This document shows positions 2,660 to 16,725 of a stretch of DNA of 16,725 nucleotides, in pieces. Made by a program: the position numbers and the translations under genes. Within the stretch, counting starts at the first letter, position 1, and each line of letters opens with the position of its first letter. Source of the stretch: a virus (taxonomy: Duplodnaviria; Heunggongvirae; Uroviricota; Caudoviricetes). Under the pieces are notes generated by a model. It worked only from the letters and a program-made list of their open reading frames with translations. It searched no databases and was not told the origin of the DNA. Location: IMG/VR virus record IMGVR_UViG_638341082_000006. The stretch is one strand, 5' to 3'.

Positions 2660-2818
2660 GTGGACTGGCTTCTTGATGTTTTTGCTACCTGGCTCTACGG
2701 CTTAAAAGTAATCGCGATAACGTTAGCGGTCATCATGTTCATCAGCGGGCTGGACGATTTTTTTATTGATGTCGTCTACTGGGTACGCCGCATTAAACGC
2801 AAGTTGAGTGTTTATCGC
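2660..2818 (+). pseudogene. 5' fragment (about 53 codons) of a membrane-protein gene truncated at a deletion junction; possibly nfrB-like
   Basis: GTG start with AAGG upstream; N-terminus MDWLLDVFATWLYGLKVIAITLAVIMFISGL has a clear hydrophobic helix then basic patch; beyond about 2818 the frame is antisense to the Nu1 homologue. Assignment to nfrB is from K-12 gene order memory, not alignment. Confidence 0.35.
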
Positions 2819-3328
2819 CGCTATCAGTTCATCCAGCGCGGCTGCTTTGTTCATGGCTTTGATGATATCCCGTTTCAGGAAATCAACATGTCGGTTTTCC
2901 AGTTCCGGAAAACGCCGCTGCACCGACAGGGGGATCCCGTCGAGAATACTGGCAATTTCACCTGCGATCCGCGACAGCACGAAAGTACAGAATGCGGTTT
3001 CCACCACTTCAGCGGAGTCTCTGGCATTTTTCAGCTCCTGTGCGTCGGCCTGCGCACGCGTAAGTCGATGGCGTTCGTACTCAATAGTCCCTGGCTGGAG
3101 ATCTGTCTCGCTGGCCTGCCGCAGTTCTTCAACTTCCCGGCGCAGCTTTTCGTTCTCAATTTCAGCATCCCTTTCGGCATACCATCTTATAACGGCGGCA
3201 GAGTCATAAAGCACCTCATTACCCTTGCCACCGCCTCGCAGAACGGGCATTCCCTGTTCCTGCCAGTTCTGAATGGTACGGATACTCGCACCGAAAATGT
3301 CAGCCAGCTGCTTTTTGTTGACTTCCAT
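2723..3328 (-). CDS. nohD: phage terminase small subunit, lambda Nu1 family, 201 aa with non-lambda C-terminal 30 aa (fusion at a deletion junction)
   Basis: Translation MEVNKKQLADIFGASIRTIQNWQEQGMPVLRGGGKGNEVLYDSAAVI... is near-identical to lambda Nu1 through ...KAMNKAAALDELI, then diverges; no large terminase gene follows. Confidence 0.9.
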   Translation of the reverse strand: MEVNKKQLADIFGASIRTIQNWQEQGMPVLRGGGKGNEVLYDSAAVIRWYAERDAEIENEKLRREVEELRQASETDLQPGTIEYERHRLTRAQADAQELKNARDSAEVVETAFCTFVLSRIAGEIASILDGIPLSVQRRFPELENRHVDFLKRDIIKAMNKAAALDELIAAINTQLAFNAAYPVDDINKKIVQPADEHDDR

Positions 3329-8883: not shown

Positions 8884-9046
8884 GATTCCTCCTTGCTGCC
8901 AGTCGCAACCATTTTTTATCAACCAGGCTGGCGGTATATCCGAGCAGTGTTGGTATTTCGGATGGTTTCAGCTCAGGCTTACGCTTACGACGATTTGGTA
9001 CTCTGTAGATGTGTCCGTTCATGACACGAATAAGCGGTGTAGCCAT
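8876..9046 (-). CDS. ninE: NinE family protein, 56 aa
   Basis: Hand translation [56 protein letters not shown]; ATG overlaps ybcN stop (TAATG). Confidence 0.8.
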   Translation of the reverse strand: MATPLIRVMNGHIYRVPNRRKRKPELKPSEIPTLLGYTASLVDKKWLRLAARRNHG

Positions 9047-9501
9047 TACGCCTCCTGCTTGTCGCGCAGCAGCTGGAACTCGCAGCTCTGCGGAATAGTC
9101 AGGTGGCAGCCAATATTCATCGCCCAGGCTTCAACCTTACACAGGAAGACATACATCTCTCCGGTATCAAGATTGGAGGTATGACGTAATGACTGAATGG
9201 TGGTGATTTCACCGGTTACGACATCAACCAGTTCTTTGGTTTCATAACCGAGATAAGTGTGTTTGAGAGCATCTTTTACCCAAGCTGGAGTGGCGAACGT
9301 TTTACCCCTGCTGATGAGGTATTCACTGATTTCGCTGTACCACATGTGGCTGAGTGCATTCTGGGAAAGACTGCGTCTCTCGCGCCACGGTTTAAGCACC
9401 ATGCGAAAGCATTTGCCGTCCTCCAGATAAGGCTGGATCTGCCGACCGATAGCGGTGAAGTTACCGCGATGCAATTTGATACCATCTTGTGGGAGGTTCA
9501 C
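9046..9501 (-). CDS. ybcN: NinB-like recombination / DNA base-flipping protein YbcN, 151 aa
   Basis: [54 protein letters not shown]... ; GTG start with GGAGG RBS. Confidence 0.9.
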
Positions 9502-9693
9502 GCTTCACCTCCGCAGAGATCAAACGCTGGATGCAAAATATCGCAGGTGCATTTCTGCATCTGTGAATGGAGAAGAGAGGTTGGATTGTATGTGCGCATA
9601 AACGTCCCCGTTTAGCGCAGAAGTCACCGGAGGAGTTCAAACTCCGGTGACTTAATTATGGCAAGTTGATTGTTGAAAATCAATTTAGTGGAT

Positions 9694-10476
9694 TTAGGCG
9701 CAATACAAAGGATCATTAGCAGCTCTAATACCGCCCTGAATCGCAAGCCCTGTATGGCAATTTGACATTGAGCATGATTGCCATCTGTGCAAGGGACCTC
9801 CATTAATCGAAACTTCCAGCAGATCTTTATCTCCTTTCATCCTGACCCCTTCATACAACATATCAAGACGCTCAACAATCAATCCTGTTGGAGGTTCCAT
9901 TTTTAGAACGAGGGCAAACTCTCCTGGCCCACGTCGTATTGTTATACGCGGGCCGGTACACTCCACATCCCAATTGTCTGATTTAGCTTTCCATTCATTT
10001 TCATCTATCAGTAAAGTCTCCTTACCAATAGAATTACAGAAAATTCCTGATAAAAGCATCGGTCCATGTGGTATGGGTGAAGGTTTCACAGAAAGAATGG
10101 GTTGTTCGTTGACTACAATCAAATTTTGACAGTTATGAAACGTCACTCCTGCAAATTTTACTGTTATAGGCTCATTATGAAAATCAAACATTTCATTTGC
10201 AAAACCAGCCTGTAAGCACTTGGGATTTCTGTCAGCTATTTCCACTGTCTGTGCTGAAAGTCTACCACGAGCTCTTTTTTGATTGCATTGGGAGCAAAGA
10301 AGTGTCATTCCATTCGGATCATGTATTTTGGCATCAACGAAGTCAGGTTTAAAATGCTCATAATCATAAAATCCAAATCCACAAATTACACAGCCAAAGC
10401 CGCACCTTTGCCTTATCTGACGTTTTATTGTCTCAGGTATTCTTCTTGAGAGCCCGTGTTTATTAATATTGTCCAT
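9694..10476 (-). CDS. HNH-endonuclease-domain protein with about 190-aa C-terminal domain of unknown function, 260 aa
   Basis: N-terminal motif IPETIKRQIRQRCGFGCVICGF...YDYEHFKP...PNGMTLLCSQCNQKR (CxxC...H...N...CxxCN, typical HNH); ATG start; about 40 percent GC, lower than flanking phage genes. Confidence 0.75.
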   Translation of the reverse strand: MDNINKHGLSRRIPETIKRQIRQRCGFGCVICGFGFYDYEHFKPDFVDAKIHDPNGMTLLCSQCNQKRARGRLSAQTVEIADRNPKCLQAGFANEMFDFHNEPITVKFAGVTFHNCQNLIVVNEQPILSVKPSPIPHGPMLLSGIFCNSIGKETLLIDENEWKAKSDNWDVECTGPRITIRRGPGEFALVLKMEPPTGLIVERLDMLYEGVRMKGDKDLLEVSINGGPLHRWQSCSMSNCHTGLAIQGGIRAANDPLYCA

Positions 10477-10650
10477 ATGGTTAGTACGCTATAAGTTTGT
10501 TTCTATAATTTTACCACAATAGATAAGTTTGTATCAGAAATCGCTATATGGAGTGAGCGGAATATTTATATTATTCATGCAATTGCTCTCCCGTACGCAG
10601 CCCGCACTTCCGTCATCGCAGAATGACGGAAGCCTTACTAACTAGCGCCT

Positions 10651-10974
10651 TTATTGAAACAGATTCTGAGGTAAATGCGGCAATACTTGACTCCACTTAT
10701 CATCCTGCCACGGCTGAAGTTTTACATGTGCCGTTTCTCGGGCGAGGATTGCTCGCGCTCTGTTGAGTCTCTGGGGATATTCTTGCTCGATGGAAGTGAA
10801 GTGACCAGCCTCACCATGCTCCGCATCCTGAAGAAGATGAGTAACGTTCTGGTAGGCAATTAACATCACATTCCCTGCTCGCCATAACCAGGCGAGTGTG
10901 CAAAGTTCGTTATCAGTGAATTGTTTTGTGATTGGGAATTGTTGAACTGCTAGAACGGGAACGCCAGCATCCAT
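10651..10974 (-). CDS. hypothetical protein, 107 aa
   Basis: ORF track; ATG start preceded by in-frame TAG five codons upstream, so the start is well bounded; weak SD; no recognisable motif. Confidence 0.4.
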   Translation of the reverse strand: MDAGVPVLAVQQFPITKQFTDNELCTLAWLWRAGNVMLIAYQNVTHLLQDAEHGEAGHFTSIEQEYPQRLNRARAILARETAHVKLQPWQDDKWSQVLPHLPQNLFQ

Positions 10975-11085
10975 TGGCAGTCCCTATAGTAAAACCATAG
11001 CTCAGGACGCTTCGTTCAGGATAGATACTTTTATTGTACTTACCTAACTTTCTTACTATAGCACGGTTGGAAAAGTGATTATTAC

Positions 11086-12612
11086 TCAAAAATAAACCTC
11101 ACCATCAACCATATATTTGAGAGTACTTATCGCCTGCTGGGCGGATATTGTTTTCATTAAAGGATAGTGTTTAAAAACAATGCCATTCATAAAATAGATA
11201 TCACAGGTTTTATTATCTGTATTGATTATGATTTTTTCGAATGTTTTATAGGCAAGTGTACGACATAGCTCTCGCCCATTTTTACTGGTTAAGTCAATAG
11301 CATGAAAATCACCAAGTGAACTCACCGCTTTACTCTTCAAAGTTTTTAATGATACCGAAGCCCTTCGTAATTCTTTATCTAATACTCTGATTTTTTCTGC
11401 TATAGCGGTAACTTCAGGCGCAACAGATAATGCAGCAATTAAATTATTAATTTTCATCTGGAGCTCAATAATTTTCAACTCTAAAGTTTCATTAGCATCT
11501 TTCTTGTTTTCAACTGGTTGGATTTTACTACAATTAAAAAGCAACTCATTAATGATATTATAATCAACCAAATCTCTCTTTATTGATGGCCTGTCACATC
11601 GATGCAGTCTTCTCATCGGACAAACATAATAGCCATGCAAACTTCCAGATACCGCATGAACAATCATGGTATTACCACAAGCCTCGCACTTCATAACTGT
11701 TCGAAGTAGATTTATCAACATAGGATTTTTGCTACTATTGCTAATACCAAAAGGTGCCAACCGAATTTCCTGCACAGCGTAAAACAAATCATCTGATATG
11801 ACTCTGGGATAATAGCCAGCGATTTCACTTATTCCTTTACCTCTTGCACGATATGAAGGTACGCATATACCTATCAGAGCTTTATTCGCTAATAATTTTT
11901 CAATTACAGAAGGCCCCCATGCACTTTCTTTGCCTGAGAAATTTTTTACAGCATGATCATTTAAATACTTGGCTATTGCATTCAATGATCGCCTTTCCAT
12001 CCTGAGTTTAAAAATTAGCTCAATCGTTTTCACCCTGTCGGGGTCTGGAATAAAAGCTGTTCTTTTGTCATCCAATGAGAGCCATCTCGGACAAGACGCC
12101 GTCATAATCGTGCCTGACTCCAGTGCATCCTGCCGTTTTTTCTTCCATGATAATTTAACCCGACTTGACTTTATCTCGCTTTCTTCATTTGCCCTTTGTG
12201 CTATAAGTATGGCTTTTATTAATGAATATGGATCATTCAAAGAGTCAATATTATAGACTGTATTATCGCAAAGAGTTATAACATCAATACCGTGATTCAA
12301 AATCAATTTCAGACGCTCAATCGCTTCACCGACTTTTTCTCTTGAAAGTCTGTCCAAACTTTCAACTAACAATGTAGTTCCTGGCAATATATAACCATGC
12401 TCTATAGCATCTAAAAATTCCGAAAAAGCTCCTGATTGTGCATGCTTTCCTTTGAATGCACTTAATCCTAAATCTTCATATGTTATGGTATCAAGATAAT
12501 AATCACTATTTACCTTTAACCATTCAGCAATAAGTCTTCTCTGTCGGTTCAATGAGTCGCCAGACATCTGACCTGGTGATGAAAATCGCATATATGCTAT
12601 GGCTTTTTTCAT
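11086..12612 (-). CDS. ybcK: large serine recombinase (resolvase/invertase-type catalytic domain plus recombinase and zinc-ribbon regions), 508 aa
   Basis: N-terminal AIAYMRFSSPGQ...NRQ serine-recombinase catalytic motif; C-terminal Cys cluster CEACGN...YYVCPMRRLHRC and coiled coil; matches recalled YbcK length; about 34 percent GC. Confidence 0.9.
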   Translation of the reverse strand: MKKAIAYMRFSSPGQMSGDSLNRQRRLIAEWLKVNSDYYLDTITYEDLGLSAFKGKHAQSGAFSEFLDAIEHGYILPGTTLLVESLDRLSREKVGEAIERLKLILNHGIDVITLCDNTVYNIDSLNDPYSLIKAILIAQRANEESEIKSSRVKLSWKKKRQDALESGTIMTASCPRWLSLDDKRTAFIPDPDRVKTIELIFKLRMERRSLNAIAKYLNDHAVKNFSGKESAWGPSVIEKLLANKALIGICVPSYRARGKGISEIAGYYPRVISDDLFYAVQEIRLAPFGISNSSKNPMLINLLRTVMKCEACGNTMIVHAVSGSLHGYYVCPMRRLHRCDRPSIKRDLVDYNIINELLFNCSKIQPVENKKDANETLELKIIELQMKINNLIAALSVAPEVTAIAEKIRVLDKELRRASVSLKTLKSKAVSSLGDFHAIDLTSKNGRELCRTLAYKTFEKIIINTDNKTCDIYFMNGIVFKHYPLMKTISAQQAISTLKYMVDGEVYF

Positions 12613-12867
12613 GGTGACACCTGCTAACGTATGCTTTTATAAACCTTAGTGGTGGGATATAACTTTTGTTTAATTTTTATTTAAAAAGACAATTAAGGTC
12701 ACATTATCTTGAATATACAACAATAATCGTATTGCAATTTTCTCACGCCATAATCTTGAAAGCACAAAAGAATACATAAAAAATAAAGACATTAACAAAA
12801 AGCATAAAACGAGGCTCATATAAATATAAGAGCCTCCATATTTTAGTCGTTTAAAAACAAATTATTT

Positions 12868-13200
12868 TTAATGTGGTGTGCTTCGTGACAATAAATTAAT
12901 AACCAACACACCGGCACAAATCAACATCATGCCTATAATGGCTGGCAGGTCCAGCCGTTGGCCGAAAAATCCCCATGACAGTAAGCTAATCAGGACAATA
13001 CCGACTCCTGACCAGATAGCATAAGCAATCCCTGTAGGAATATAAGCCAGCGTCTGAGCTAATAACCAGAATGATGCACAATAACAAATAATTGTACCAA
13101 CAGATGGCCATAACCGTGTAAAACCTTCTGAAAACTTCATTAAGGTTGTACCAATGACCTCTGCAAGTATTGCACCACCAAGATAAATATAAGGGTTCAT
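12868..13200 (-). CDS. emrE: small multidrug resistance efflux transporter EmrE, 110 aa
   Basis: Start moved to ATG at 13200: MNPYIYLGGAILAEVIGTTLMKFSEGF... with conserved Glu14 in TM1; near-identical to recalled EmrE. Confidence 0.95.
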   Translation of the reverse strand: MNPYIYLGGAILAEVIGTTLMKFSEGFTRLWPSVGTIICYCASFWLLAQTLAYIPTGIAYAIWSGVGIVLISLLSWGFFGQRLDLPAIIGMMLICAGVLVINLLSRSTPH

Positions 13201-13267
13201 AGCATATTCTTTCCTGTTCAAACTGGAGAGAATTGTACTACAGTTTGAAATCAACTCACCTGTTTCA

Positions 13268-13570
13268 TCATTGTGTACCCATTGATGTTCTTTTATATAC
13301 CCTCAATACGCGTTTCATCGCGGCACTCTGGCGACACTCCTTAAAAATCAGATTCGTGCTCACCTTTCCTTCCCGTTCTTCTCTGGTAGCGAACCGGTAA
13401 TACACCGTTCGCCAGACCTTACCATCAACGACCAGGATTCCTGCCCGCGCCATTTTAGCCGCAGCCTGATTTATGCTGGTTACGGTTGCGCCTGTTACCG
13501 CGGCAACGTCCTGTGCACAGAAGCTCTTATGCGTCCCCAGGTAATGAATAATTGCCTCTTTGCCCGTCAT
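13268..13570 (-). CDS. renD: Ren exclusion protein homologue, 100 aa, apparently intact
   Basis: MTGKEAIIHYLGTHKSFCAQDVAAVTGATVTSINQAAAKMARAG... closely matches recalled lambda Ren; ATG overlaps P stop. Confidence 0.9.
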   Translation of the reverse strand: MTGKEAIIHYLGTHKSFCAQDVAAVTGATVTSINQAAAKMARAGILVVDGKVWRTVYYRFATREEREGKVSTNLIFKECRQSAAMKRVLRVYKRTSMGTQ

Positions 13571-14268
13571 ACACTTGCTCCTTTCAGTCCGAACTTAGCT
13601 TTAATTTCTGCGATCTTCGCCAGAGCCTGTGCACGATTTAGAGGTCTACCGCCCATAACAGGAAGTTGTTTTACTGGTTCAGGTATCGTCTCACCACGGT
13701 TAATTCGCGCTGTCATACAGGTCAGTTCATCGGCAGCCTTGCGCCGTAATTCCGCGTCAGTCAGCGCATTGGCCCGCATGTTCTGGTACAAGTTGGTAAC
13801 CAACCAGTAATGCGCGTTCGATTTCCACGGATAAGACTCTGCATCCGGATACAGGCCACGCTTCCGGCAATACTCGTAAACCATATCAACCAGCTCGCTG
13901 ACGTTTGGCAGCCCGGCGTTAACAGATGCTTCTTCCCGGCACCAGGCGACAAACTGCCCGGGTGATGGCAGGAATGGTCGATTCTGCCGACGGGCTACGC
14001 GCATTCCAGCGTTAACCTGTTCCATTGTGGTGATCCCGTTTTCCCGGAAAGCCAGAACCCACTGGCGGCGGATTTCGTTCAGTTCATTCTGGTCACGGTT
14101 AGCCAGGCTCGCCGGGAAAGTTGCCAGTAACTGGCTGAACACACCGTTGATGATCTGCGCTACCTGCTGTACCTGTGGCTTTTCGTCGTACTGTTCCGGC
14201 ATGTTGTTGGCGATCCGGCGCATCTGCTCACAGTCAAAGTTAACCATCTGTGCGGCGATGTTTTTCAT
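13567..14268 (-). CDS. P: replication protein P (DnaB helicase loader), lambda P family, 233 aa
   Basis: MKNIAAQMVNFDCEQMRRIANNMPEQYDEKPQVQQVAQIING... near-identical to recalled lambda P over its full length; ATG overlaps O stop. Confidence 0.95.
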   Translation of the reverse strand: MKNIAAQMVNFDCEQMRRIANNMPEQYDEKPQVQQVAQIINGVFSQLLATFPASLANRDQNELNEIRRQWVLAFRENGITTMEQVNAGMRVARRQNRPFLPSPGQFVAWCREEASVNAGLPNVSELVDMVYEYCRKRGLYPDAESYPWKSNAHYWLVTNLYQNMRANALTDAELRRKAADELTCMTARINRGETIPEPVKQLPVMGGRPLNRAQALAKIAEIKAKFGLKGASV

Positions 14269-15167
14269 AGCTCCACCCCGTAAATCCAGTCAGTGTTCGT
14301 CAGGTCGAGTTTTGGTTTGCCGGCTATCACGCCAGCCTGTTGCTTGTTTCGGTTGATTTCGAGCTGGGTCCACTTGTCGCGGAGTTTGGCCGGACTTAGC
14401 ACGTTACCGGACCAGAAGTTGTCCTGGCATGCCCAGCGGAACAGCACACACATGTCGCGGTGGTTACGTCCGTCACGTTCACGCATCAGGCGGATATCGT
14501 TAGCCCACCCTGCAAAATTCGGTTTTCTGGCTGATGGCGCGATGGTCTTCACCATGTCAAACATCCACTCTGCGGCGGTCAGGTCTTCTGCTGTCCCCCA
14601 CTTGCTGCCGCTCTGAATTGCAGCATCCGGTTTCACCACAGGAAGATCGTTTTCTGGTTGGTCAGAGGATTCGCCAGAATTCTCGGACGAAAAAGGTTTT
14701 ATATTGTCTTTTGTTAGTTTGTCTTTTGTGTTTACCTGATTCGGGTAAACGCCTTTACCTGATTTGGGTAAACTTTTTTTACCTGATTCAGGTAAATTTA
14801 CCTCTTTCAGGTAAACTTTATTTTTCTTACCTGATTCGGGTAATGTTGACCATTCACTGACCACATTATTAATGCCGGTATTCCGCCCGCTCTGAATAAA
14901 AATCCCACGCTTTACCAGAACACTTTTTGCAGCAGAACACTTGTGCGGCAATATCCCGGTTAATTCGGAAAGTTGCTCGTTGCTAACCCAATCCAGTTTT
15001 TTATTAAAGCCATATGTTTTGCGCATGACAGCCAGAAAGACCAGAAGCTGGTGCTGTGTTAATCCGGCCAACTGAGGTGTAAAAATGTTCAGAATCATTT
15101 TGCCTAACACCTGGTACGTCGACCACCACGGCACTCCCTGCAAAATCCTGCGTTCTACCCACAACAA
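14265..15167 (-). CDS. O: replication initiator O family protein containing ori iterons; start uncertain (track starts at TTG; alternative ATG about 69 nt downstream giving MILNIF...)
   Basis: C-terminal ...FRWACQDNFWSGNVLSPAKLRDKWTQLEINRNKQQAGVIAGKPKLDLTNTDWIYGVEL matches lambda O C-terminus; N-terminal DNA-binding part differs from lambda. Confidence 0.85.
   Translation of the reverse strand: MLWVERRILQGVPWWSTYQVLGKMILNIFTPQLAGLTQHQLLVFLAVMRKTYGFNKKLDWVSNEQLSELTGILPHKCSAAKSVLVKRGIFIQSGRNTGINNVVSEWSTLPESGKKNKVYLKEVNLPESGKKSLPKSGKGVYPNQVNTKDKLTKDNIKPFSSENSGESSDQPENDLPVVKPDAAIQSGSKWGTAEDLTAAEWMFDMVKTIAPSARKPNFAGWANDIRLMRERDGRNHRDMCVLFRWACQDNFWSGNVLSPAKLRDKWTQLEINRNKQQAGVIAGKPKLDLTNTDWIYGVEL
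14733..14845. repeat. replication origin iterons: five copies of an 18-bp repeat TACCTGATTCGGGTAAAC inside the O gene, next to an AT-rich stretch (about 14690..14732)
   Basis: Copies at about 14733, 14756, 14780, 14799 and 14828 with 1-3 mismatches each; arrangement mirrors lambda ori (iterons inside O followed by AT-rich region). Confidence 0.75.
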
Positions 15168-15334: not shown

Positions 15335-15706
15335 ATGGAATCATACAGCCTCACACTCGATGAGGCCTGTCAGTTTCTTAAGATATCCAGACCAACCGCC
15401 ACCAACTGGATACGAACAGGCCGCCTACAGGCAACACGTAAAGATCCAACCAAGCCAAAATCTCCTTACCTCACAACACGGCAAGCCTGCATTGCGGCGC
15501 TTCAGTCTCCGCTGCATACTGTCCAGGTGAGCGCGGGTGATGGCATAACAGAGGAAAGAAAATGTCACTCTTCCGCAGAAATGAAATATGGTATGCCTCG
15601 TATTCGCTCCCGGGCGGGAAACGAATTAAGGAATCTCTTGGCACAAAGGACAAGCGGCAAGCTCAGGAGTTGCACGACAAGCGAAAAGCAGAACTCTGGC
15701 GAGTAG
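15335..15706 (+). CDS. xisD: excisionase-like DNA-binding protein, 123 aa from the ATG, overlapping the int start by 145 nt
   Basis: [36 protein letters not shown]... helix-turn-helix excisionase-like N-terminus directly upstream of int; track ORF starts at upstream GTG. Confidence 0.6.
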
Positions 15707-16725
15707 AAAAGCTAGGGGATTTACCTGATGTCACTTTTGAAGAGGCCTGCCTAAGATGGCTTGAGGAAAAAGCTGATAAAAAATCTCTCGATTCAGATAA
15801 AAGCCGGATTGAGTTCTGGCTTGAACATTTTGAGGGTATAAGGCTTAAAGATATCTCGGAGGCAAAGATTTACTCTGCTGTAAGCAGAATGCATAACAGA
15901 AAGACGAAAGAAATATGGAAACAGAAAGTTCAGGCCGCCATCAGGAAAGGTAAAGAACCGCCTGTTTATGAACCAAAGCCAGTATCAACTCAGACAAAGG
16001 CAAAGCATCTTGCCATGATAAAGGCCATTCTCCGTGCTGCAGAACGCGACTGGAAGTGGCTGGAAAAAGCGCCTGTCATCAAGATACCAGCGGTCAGAAA
16101 CAAGCGAGTCAGATGGCTGGAAAAGGAGGAAGCAAAACGCCTTATTGATGAGTGCCCCGAACCACTGAAATCTGTCGTCAAGTTTGCGCTGGCAACTGGT
16201 CTGAGAAAGTCGAACATCATAAATCTGGAATGGCAACAAATCGACATGCAGCGACGAGTTGCCTGGGTGAATCCAGAAGAGAGCAAATCAAACCGCGCCA
16301 TTGGTGTGGCGCTGAACGATACCGCCTGTAAAGTGTTGCGTGATCAAATAGGCAAGCATCACAAATGGGTGTTTGTACATACCAAGGCGGCTAAGCGAGC
16401 AGATGGAACATCAACGCCTGCGGTCAGGAAGATGCGCATCGACAGCAAGACATCATGGCTATCAGCTTGTCGTCGTGCAGGAATTGAAGATTTCCGTTTC
16501 CATGACCTCAGACACACCTGGGCAAGCTGGCTGATTCAGTCAGGCGTCCCATTATCAGTGCTTCAGGAAATGGGCGGATGGGAGTCCATAGAAATGGTTC
16601 GTAGGTATGCTCACCTTGCGCCTAATCATTTGACAGAGCATGCGAGGAAAATAGACGACATTTTTGGTGATAATGTCCCAAATATGTCCCACTCTGGAAT
16701 TATGGAGGATATAAAGAAGGCGTAA
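15562..16725 (+). CDS. intD: tyrosine integrase, P22/DLP12 type, 387 aa
   Basis: [34 protein letters not shown]... with C-terminal catalytic motifs [11 protein letters not shown]...VRRYAHL; GAGGAAAG RBS; window ends at its stop codon. Confidence 0.95.

Follow-up and report, generated by a model that had tools for sequence, protein, structure and literature searches.

A large serine recombinase gene in an exchangeable accessory-gene slot of a DLP12-type prophage

Results

Organization of the locus

We analysed the genes lying between ren and ybcN in a 16,725-nucleotide stretch of viral DNA (Caudoviricetes; IMG/VR record IMGVR_UViG_638341082_000006; the whole stretch is referred to below as the window), and in particular ybcK, which encodes a large serine recombinase. 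Positions 9000-13700 of the window are 100% identical to the chromosome of Escherichia coli B-JRPT-4119, where the RefSeq annotation places a DLP12-type lambdoid prophage at tRNA-Arg. The prophage runs through intD, a frameshifted O, P, ren, emrE, ylcJ, ybcK, an open reading frame (ORF) with a P22AR C-terminal domain, a 260-amino-acid hypothetical protein, a 33-amino-acid ORF, ybcN, ninE, ybcO, rusA, ylcG, quuD, an nmpC-like porin gene and essD/rrrD/rzpD, and ends with iss, terS and an ISAs1 transposase. According to the annotation it is a defective prophage: O is frameshifted, immunity genes are absent, nothing of a cI/cro/N region is left between O and intD, and the small terminase gene is adjoined by the ISAs1-family transposase, with no head or tail genes beyond.

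The interval between ren and the ninB-like gene ybcN holds emrE, ylcJ, ybcK, a 107-amino-acid ORF and the 260-amino-acid ORF, all on the minus strand (Table 1). Since they are co-directional with O, P and ren, these genes belong to the early-right (pR) operon. An initial annotation, made from the sequence alone, had located the ORFs correctly, on the minus strand and interposed between ren and nin-type genes; the ORFs that it named are all present, and ylcJ and the 33-amino-acid ylcH-like ORF had escaped it. Its description of the block as AT-rich and mixed in composition also held. The GC content of the whole block is 38.6% versus about 50% in the flanks (ren, 50.5%; P, 53.3%; ybcN, 50.2%), with 41% for emrE, 25% for ylcJ, 47.5% for the 107-amino-acid ORF, 41% for the 260-amino-acid ORF and 21-43% for the spacers; the value for ybcK is 36.0%, not about 34% as first given. 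Promoter and terminator scans returned chance-level matches only.

Table 1. Positions of the features discussed in the text (window coordinates unless a locus is named)
Feature	Position	Strand	Basis
Exchangeable accessory-gene slot of the early-right operon, from ren codon ~89 to the ylcH/ybcN backbone	9684-13303	-	Homology ends versus prophages with other cargo
emrE, small multidrug resistance (SMR) efflux pump, 110 amino acids	12868-13200	-	Pfam Multi_Drug_Res, E = 2e-35; annotated EmrE
ylcJ, small hydrophobic ORF, 49 amino acids, 25% GC	12670-12819	-	Pfam YlcJ, E = 1e-34; annotated
ybcK, intact large serine recombinase, 508 amino acids	11086-12612	-	Pfam Resolvase, Recombinase, Zn_ribbon_recom
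Segment after the ybcK stop, 124 bp, moving with ybcK; conserved extended -10-like TGCTATAGT	10962-11085	-	In all non-K-12-type ybcK loci
rha', 3' half of a Rha/P22-type antirepressor gene, 107-amino-acid ORF	10651-10974	-	Pfam P22AR_C, E = 1.5e-13
Exchangeable single-gene cargo, 260 amino acids, N-terminal HNH-like zinc-finger domain and all-beta C-terminal domain	9694-10476	-	Weak HNH matches, predicted model
Conserved backbone linker, right border of the slot: hairpin 9622-9651 and 33-amino-acid ylcH-like ORF, before ybcN	9498-9683	-	Kept in all variants
ylcH-like ORF, 33 amino acids	9498-9599	-	Annotated
ren (100 amino acids), backbone flank	13268-13570	-	RefSeq 'protein ren'
ybcN (ninB-like), backbone flank	9046-9501	-	Annotation
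intD, the prophage's own tyrosine integrase, adjoining tRNA-Arg	15562-16725	+	Annotation; Pfam Phage_integrase in the identical locus L035
ISAs1-family transposase, small terminase gene, frameshifted O (listed jointly)	1253-2389, 2723-3328, 14265-15110	+, -, -	Annotation
umuD/umuC-like neighbours of recombinase homologues	L026 9212-9845; L028 8178-9975; L128/L129 8148-9865; L127 11604-13291		

The block fills a slot with generic borders

We mapped the borders of the block by comparing the window with prophages that differ in content between ren and ybcN: locus L004, with two hypothetical genes; L010, with a TagO-like gene; L008, with the Kiwa genes KwaA/KwaB; and phage PhiR26_1 (L023), with PD-lambda-1, rha and a gene for a 169-amino-acid protein. 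On the nin side, homology ended at 9683/9684 in every comparison, just outside the conserved linker. On the ren side it ended at 13303/13304 in L004 and PhiR26_1; the corresponding points are 13325 for L010 and 13465 for L008. Alignment of the ren 3' ends revealed cassette-specific tails, the last ~10 codons being supplied by each cassette; in the window the last ~12 codons of ren (13268-13303) move together with the emrE cassette. The limits first proposed for the block, 9502-13267, therefore give way to a comparative slot of 9684-13303. As cassettes that lack a recombinase use both of its borders, these are generic borders of an exchange slot. The locus thus combines fixed backbone borders, alternating unrelated cargos and deviant composition, the marks of a lambdoid accessory-gene (moron) hotspot, and the block is the occupant of a generic accessory-gene ('moron'/defence) slot in the early-right operon of DLP12-type prophages, between ren and ylcH/ybcN. 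We found no paper describing the DLP12-type ren-ninB slot as a defence hotspot.

In PhiR26_1 the slot (1374-5042 of L023) is filled by a full-length rha, the 169-amino-acid cargo and, in opposite orientation, PD-lambda-1. It also contains a second copy of the ylcH-like linker (3119-3288). Such a duplication is the expected product of recombination at the shared linker, and it shows cassettes stacked at that point.

Attachment-site (att)-like repeats were sought at 9502-9693 and 13201-13267, as the initial annotation had suggested. At the block ends and at the slot borders alike, we found only short matches at chance level. One direct pair of 18 nucleotides (9673-9690 and 13341-13358, 78% identity) was considered as an att repeat and rejected, being at chance level and outside the mapped left border.

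A three-layer mosaic

The block is a mosaic of three layers: emrE-ylcJ-ybcK, the 3' half of rha, and a swappable single-gene cargo. The first layer is constant. The ybcK gene is present in 1,424 of 5,426 complete E. coli genomes (26%) and is full length, aligning over >=80% of the gene, in 1,398; in 1,386 of these 1,398 the order ren-emrE-ylcJ-ybcK is intact. All IMG/VR proviral copies with long enough flanks (among 80 retrieved) and all 10 of the 10 contexts of the exact window allele likewise keep emrE-ylcJ-ybcK together, which is thus a constant 2.3-kb module.

Its parts have nevertheless been exchanged separately. A chromosomal island (emrE-ybcL-ybcM-ylcH'-ompC) lying between fliE and yedK has the segment 12860-13277, which contains emrE, at 92% identity and without the rest of the module. 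This island, exemplified by CFT073 (L005 2899-6342), is the commonest class of match and resembles the remains of an old lambdoid prophage. K-12-like loci differ from the CFT073-type island by one clean extra stretch of 2,083 bp between emrE and ybcL, made up of ylcJ, ybcK and 309 bp. In addition, when the same pairs of prophages are compared, synonymous divergence (dS) is 0.12-0.18 for ybcK versus 0-0.05 for the adjacent emrE; the 'constant' module has therefore itself had a mosaic history.

About half of complete E. coli genomes have no emrE match other than the island copy. Between the island and phage alleles dS is ~0.38, and the ratio of non-synonymous to synonymous divergence (dN/dS) is 0.01.

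The junctions between K-12 and CFT073 were also considered as a source of attP/attB and discarded, as they display a short, AT-rich, imperfect direct similarity with no dyad or core.

The second layer is the 107-amino-acid ORF, which the initial annotation had listed simply as an ORF and which Pfam identifies as a P22AR_C fragment. Its sequence shares 81% identity with residues 105-202 of the 202-residue Rha of PhiR26_1, which lies in the same slot, and DNA homology to this full-length rha starts at 10961, about rha codon 100. Because only P22AR_C is present and the ORF aligns to the C-terminal half of Rha, we regard it as a truncated rha fragment. The N-terminal DNA-binding domain (Rha/KilA-N/Bro-N) of a Rha/P22-type antirepressor is absent. 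In PhiR26_1, full-length rha is followed by the same cargo slot in the absence of ybcK.

An extended -10-like motif lies ~35 bp after the ybcK stop (~11044-11052, minus strand); it reads TGCTATAGT in loci of the window type and TGCTATGGT in those of the K-12 type (L009). The two lineages diverge completely just past this motif, which may serve the downstream cargo as a promoter.

The third layer varies. At least eight alternative cargos occur downstream of the ybcK module. After rha' these encode the 260-amino-acid HNH-like protein, a 169-amino-acid protein, a 309-amino-acid protein with a BstA_C domain, a 118-amino-acid protein, an 83-amino-acid protein, or a pair of 63 and 105 amino acids; occupants in other lineages are an alpha/beta hydrolase or ybcL-ybcM, and some loci have insertion sequences. 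The left breakpoints of the cargo variants are scattered from +9 to +546 bp past the ybcK stop, and the cargo slot proper begins after the rha stop codon (about 10600-10658).

The initial annotation had proposed, as one of two possibilities, the remnant of an independent integrative element nested in the prophage, and had named as evidence against it relatives in which these genes are separate, independently acquired morons with no shared boundaries. This is largely what the related prophages show: emrE alone in an island, the rha part and cargo without ybcK, and at least eight cargos. For the whole 3.7-kb block, a nested element is not supported, as the borders are generic and common to recombinase-free cassettes, the parts are independent and no significant flanking repeats exist.

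The 260-amino-acid cargo

The region of the 260-amino-acid cargo is found in 82 of the 5,426 complete E. coli genomes. The ORF was correctly recognized at the outset; its designation as an HNH protein is only weakly supported. Pfam gives no match above threshold, HNH itself scoring below the Pfam cut-off (E = 0.043), and two PHROG HNH families match with E = 6e-4 and 3e-3. Residues C29, C32, E40, H41, H52, C61, C64 and N65 are invariant among 24 aligned homologues, which come from Entero-, Burkholderia-, Comamonas-, Pseudomonas- and Vibrio-type genomes. An AlphaFold model (mean predicted local distance difference test score, pLDDT, 87) has an N-terminal region of ~90 residues that best matches McrA and Cap5 with non-significant E-values; McrA, the best fold match in the PDB, had a probability of 0.93 but E = 0.24. 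The all-beta C-terminal domain of the model had no PDB match. An HNH endonuclease is thus a weakly supported prediction. Because the gene is located where BstA-like and other defence genes alternate, we consider it a candidate nuclease or defence gene. PADLOC reported no defence-family match for this protein, YbcK, the 107-amino-acid ORF or YlcJ. Across Gamma- and Betaproteobacteria, members of the 260-amino-acid family share 50-79% identity.

YbcK is an apparently complete and maintained recombinase

YbcK matches the Pfam families Resolvase (E = 5e-19), Recombinase (E = 2e-14) and Zn_ribbon_recom (E = 8e-8). In an alignment of 22 family members, down to 29% identity, R9, S11, Q15, D87, R88 and R91 are invariant, as are the zinc-ribbon cysteines C309, C312, C331 and C339. 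With E = 1.6e-15, a profile of the family matched the A118 integrase (4KIS) over its C-terminal recombinase domain-zinc domain-coiled-coil (RD-ZD-coiled-coil) region; matches to the catalytic domains of the TP901-1 and phiC31 integrases (3BVP and 9IBL) were weak; a phmmer search of the PDB with YbcK alone returned nothing, the A118 integrase being reached by the family profile only. YbcK therefore has the domains that define large serine recombinases, that is, a catalytic domain, and a recombinase domain and zinc ribbon with a coiled coil. The claim that the block holds an intact internal recombinase with its catalytic serine, in addition to a tyrosine integrase, was borne out: the catalytic residues are complete and intD is present.

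Between E. coli alleles, dN/dS of ybcK is 0.06-0.09 with dS up to 0.18, and the ORF was intact in all eight copies translated. The low dN/dS indicates that ybcK is under purifying selection and is not a decaying relic. The gene also occurs, at 98% identity, in the phage genomes Perceval (of LF82), D2, Lambda_4C10, PhiR47_2, PhiR68_2 and Turner; of these phages, Perceval is the only one whose complete gene table was examined, and it encodes both a tyrosine integrase and an excisionase. Judged from its sequence, YbcK lacks no part of a large serine recombinase. Purifying selection on it is strong, and viable phages that integrate by a tyrosine integrase of their own carry it as a solitary gene.

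A Rho/NusG-dependent terminator in the ybcK leader silences the gene in K-12 (PMC4150792). Elsewhere ybcK is merely listed among 16 site-specific recombinases of K-12 (PMC5426353), and the LF82 paper mentions EmrE alone as a moron of Perceval. In the literature we found no functional study or recombination assay of YbcK.

Truncated ybcK copies in HS-01 and wlxctx60 were considered as site-specific products and proved to be ordinary deletions. Deletions occur in occasional strains (FDAARGOS_401, L003 3876-4848; L205; L206), with end points that differ each time: one kind joins the 5' end of emrE to the 3' end of ybcK, and others take out the DNA between P and the start of ybcK or between ybcK codon ~50 and ylcH.

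Relatives of YbcK in other genera

Full-length homologues of YbcK (36-61% identity) occur across Enterobacterales and fall into four context groups. One group occupies the nin region in other genera, at 42-60% identity to YbcK. In Atlantibacter sp. RC6 the order is O-P-...-C5 methylase-recombinase-...-DUF1367-NinG-Q-holin; in Pantoea dispersa a tyrosine integrase gene is followed further on by cI-cro-cII-replication-ParB-like-recombinase-KilA-N-DUF968-Q-lysis; and in Candidatus Pantoea alvi the gene lies between P and Q on the opposite strand. We could not find convincing homology between the ybcK leader and the Atlantibacter leaders.

A further group, viewed within 10-kb flanks, lies at the distal end of prophages with several tail types in Atlantibacter, Yersinia, Erwinia, Ewingella, Pantoea and Citrobacter, after tail-fibre/assembly genes, often after umuD/umuC-like genes, and beside host DNA. 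In several genera these recombinase genes are adjoined by umuD-like (Peptidase_S24) and umuC-like (IMS) genes and sometimes by an ORF of 79-80 amino acids. An intact transfer-messenger RNA (tmRNA) gene lies 540 bp after the recombinase gene in Atlantibacter (L014 12070-12432), and in Yersinia (L016 ~11700-11790) a tRNA/tmRNA-like 3' fragment and a terminator lie ~200 bp after it, beside a P2-like prophage. Two readings fit these features: a tyrosine integrase has its att site next to a cargo gene, or the recombinase is itself the integrase.

Homologues on plasmids and on a mobilisable element sit between cargo blocks. Among the closer relatives, pairs with 76-94% DNA identity share the gene, 60-220 bp upstream and 0-405 bp downstream only, in otherwise unrelated surroundings; because they have so little beyond the gene in common, the recombinase gene travels as a single-gene module. 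The stop codon is the precise end of homology in two pairs, a pattern that resembles ordinary mosaicism at gene borders more than an att site.

In the remaining group, a branch with 39% identity over the full length (Serratia, Mixta, Leclercia and Rahnella; L139-L142), the recombinase (541 amino acids) is encoded by the first gene of an island of 7-10 kb, which interrupts hofB; the gene marks the island edge, and the cargo varies. All of these islands are inserted at one codon region, the His box VLSTLHTN. In Serratia fonticola (L140 8285-18762) the order is hofC, a C-terminal hofB fragment (T2SSE profile 239-370), the recombinase, two AbiTii genes, a small resolvase, an N-terminal hofB fragment (T2SSE profile 3-242) and the ppdD pilin gene. 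One junction lies 78 bp before the recombinase start codon (...GGTCGATAGGAC / TACACATCTC...) and the other reads ...GAGAGTTGTAAT / TAGCACCAAATG...; from these an attP dyad (AGAGAGTTGTA / TACACATCTCT) can be reconstructed, as can attL and attR. Because the hofB islands have clear att sites, the YbcK clade includes genuine island integrases.

Discussion

The above results make it probable, in our view, that the block is the current filling of a cargo slot in a modular mosaic, and that YbcK, intact and maintained, is not the agent of block exchange and acts at some other site. Cargo exchange would proceed through homologous recombination within P/ren, ybcK itself and the ylcH/ybcN linker, with a contribution from illegitimate joining at gene borders; one such join, that of the emrE-ylcJ-ybcK module, truncated rha. 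YbcK, which would neither drive cargo exchange nor act on the block borders, may have its origin among the island or phage integrases of its clade. Within a lysogen it would be silent owing to the Rho-dependent leader terminator; from the position of the gene and the published terminator, YbcK would be made only when N-antiterminated pR transcription reads through. It would then catalyse integrase-type recombination at a site elsewhere, for example as a secondary route of phage integration. The block itself requires no new mechanism, and its genes are already annotated in a much-studied type of prophage.

Several points weigh against it. Neither attP nor attB of YbcK was recognized near the gene in repeat and dyad searches, which have low power. 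The dyad scan of the ybcK flanks and slot borders gave nothing above shuffled sequences, in a weak test in which the genuine hofB attP scored 13/20. In the sample of the 1,424 ybcK genomes that was inspected locus by locus, we saw no prophage permuted at the nin region and no other YbcK-type junction. Both the activity of YbcK and its timing are only what we infer. Finally, the clean 2,083-bp ylcJ-ybcK difference from the CFT073-type island fits a mobile mini-element at least as well.

Such a mini-element is the main rival explanation. Here ylcJ, ybcK and ~300 bp would form a self-contained element of ~2 kb, which its own recombinase moved into the emrE-ybcL interval of a DLP12-like ancestral phage, its 3' end being replaced later in the window lineage. 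The extra stretch indeed holds exactly ylcJ, ybcK and flanks, homologue pairs in other genera share just the recombinase gene and short flanks in unrelated contexts, and the family has real integrases with attP immediately upstream of the gene. However, the indel can be read in both directions, as a deletion in the island would also fit, and its junctions, with their imperfect direct similarity, lack a dyad. The two homologue pairs that end at the stop codon are typical of gene-border mosaic joints, and the unchanged position in 1,386 of 1,398 E. coli genomes gives no sign of ongoing mobility. We therefore judge the mini-element rather unlikely. That YbcK instead acts on the adjacent cassette, as the initial annotation had proposed as an alternative, in the manner of an integron or an invertase that captures or exchanges downstream cargo, is very improbable. 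At least eight unrelated cargos do lie directly downstream of the same module, and in hofB islands a homologous recombinase stands at the edge with variable defence cargo downstream. The cargo slot works without ybcK, however, since the same position after the rha stop holds the 169-amino-acid cargo in PhiR26_1, and the right border is shared with phages that lack the gene. The breakpoints on the left are scattered, the cargos have no repeated flanking site, as integron-like cassettes would, and no inverted versions of the same DNA were seen; we found no sign of action on the cassette.

The idea that ybcK is the inert remnant of a dead element in a cryptic prophage, and is decaying there, agrees with the defective state of the window prophage (ISAs1, frameshifted O, no immunity or structural genes), with the silencing of ybcK in K-12 (PMC4150792) and with the occasional random deletions. 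It is scarcely credible against a dN/dS of 0.06-0.09 over dS up to 0.18, an intact ORF in eight of eight translated copies, alignment of 1,398 of 1,424 copies over >=80% of the gene, the presence of ybcK in phages isolated as virions, and the retention of the nin-region position by homologues of 42-60% identity in other genera. A more far-reaching proposal, which we hold to be distinctly unlikely, is that YbcK-type proteins are a distinct class of orphan large serine recombinases, kept in cargo hotspots of Enterobacterales phages and plasmids for a purpose other than integration. Possible purposes would be the seeding or remodelling of hotspots, a conditional second system of integration or capture, or attack on competing elements. 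Under this proposal it would be an undescribed activity that accounts for the purifying selection and for the repeated nin-region position across genera.

On the preferred reading, of a swappable slot filling with a recombinase that acts elsewhere, the point of interest is that K-12 has a complete, selectively maintained recombinase that is present in a quarter of complete E. coli genomes and keeps a conserved non-integrase position in several genera. Its sites, if found, would provide a new recombinase/att pair for genome engineering and could show whether orphan recombinases shape the cargo hotspots of phages. Since the gene is in K-12, the role of YbcK is readily testable. The ren-ninB slot, in turn, is a place to mine for single-gene defence candidates, such as the 260-amino-acid HNH-like, 169-amino-acid and 118-amino-acid cargos.

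The closest known system is DLP12 of K-12 (renD-emrE-ylcJ-ybcK-ybcL-ybcM-ylcH-ybcN), a prophage of the same type, with the same tRNA-Arg/argU attachment site and intD and the same emrE-ylcJ-ybcK module at 96-99% nucleotide identity. Downstream of ybcK, K-12 has 309 bp and ybcL-ybcM, whereas the window has the truncated rha and the 260-amino-acid HNH-like gene; ren of the window is also free of the IS3 interruption, and P and a frameshifted O are still present. In architecture YbcK is like the integrases of A118/LI, TP901-1 and phiC31, with a resolvase-type catalytic domain, a recombinase domain and a zinc ribbon with an embedded coiled coil. Those enzymes, however, are the only integrases of their phages and are encoded beside attP, in contrast to YbcK, which is encoded in the nin region of phages with a tyrosine integrase and excisionase. 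The hofB-island recombinases, at 39% identity, resemble the YbcK locus in standing at the edge of variable defence-type cargo (AbiTii), but these islands split their target gene and have clear attL/attR, with a dyad-bearing attP that lies 78 bp ahead of the start codon, and nothing comparable flanks the E. coli block.

As a place for accessory genes, the slot is comparable to the lambda nin region and morons. Its cargo in DLP12-type prophages includes known defence genes, namely Kiwa, PD-lambda-1 and a BstA_C-like protein. The accessory/defence hotspots of P2 and P4 (PMC9122126) likewise have fixed backbone borders and alternating unrelated cargo of low GC content; the DLP12-type slot differs from them in that one of its frequent occupants is a recombinase.

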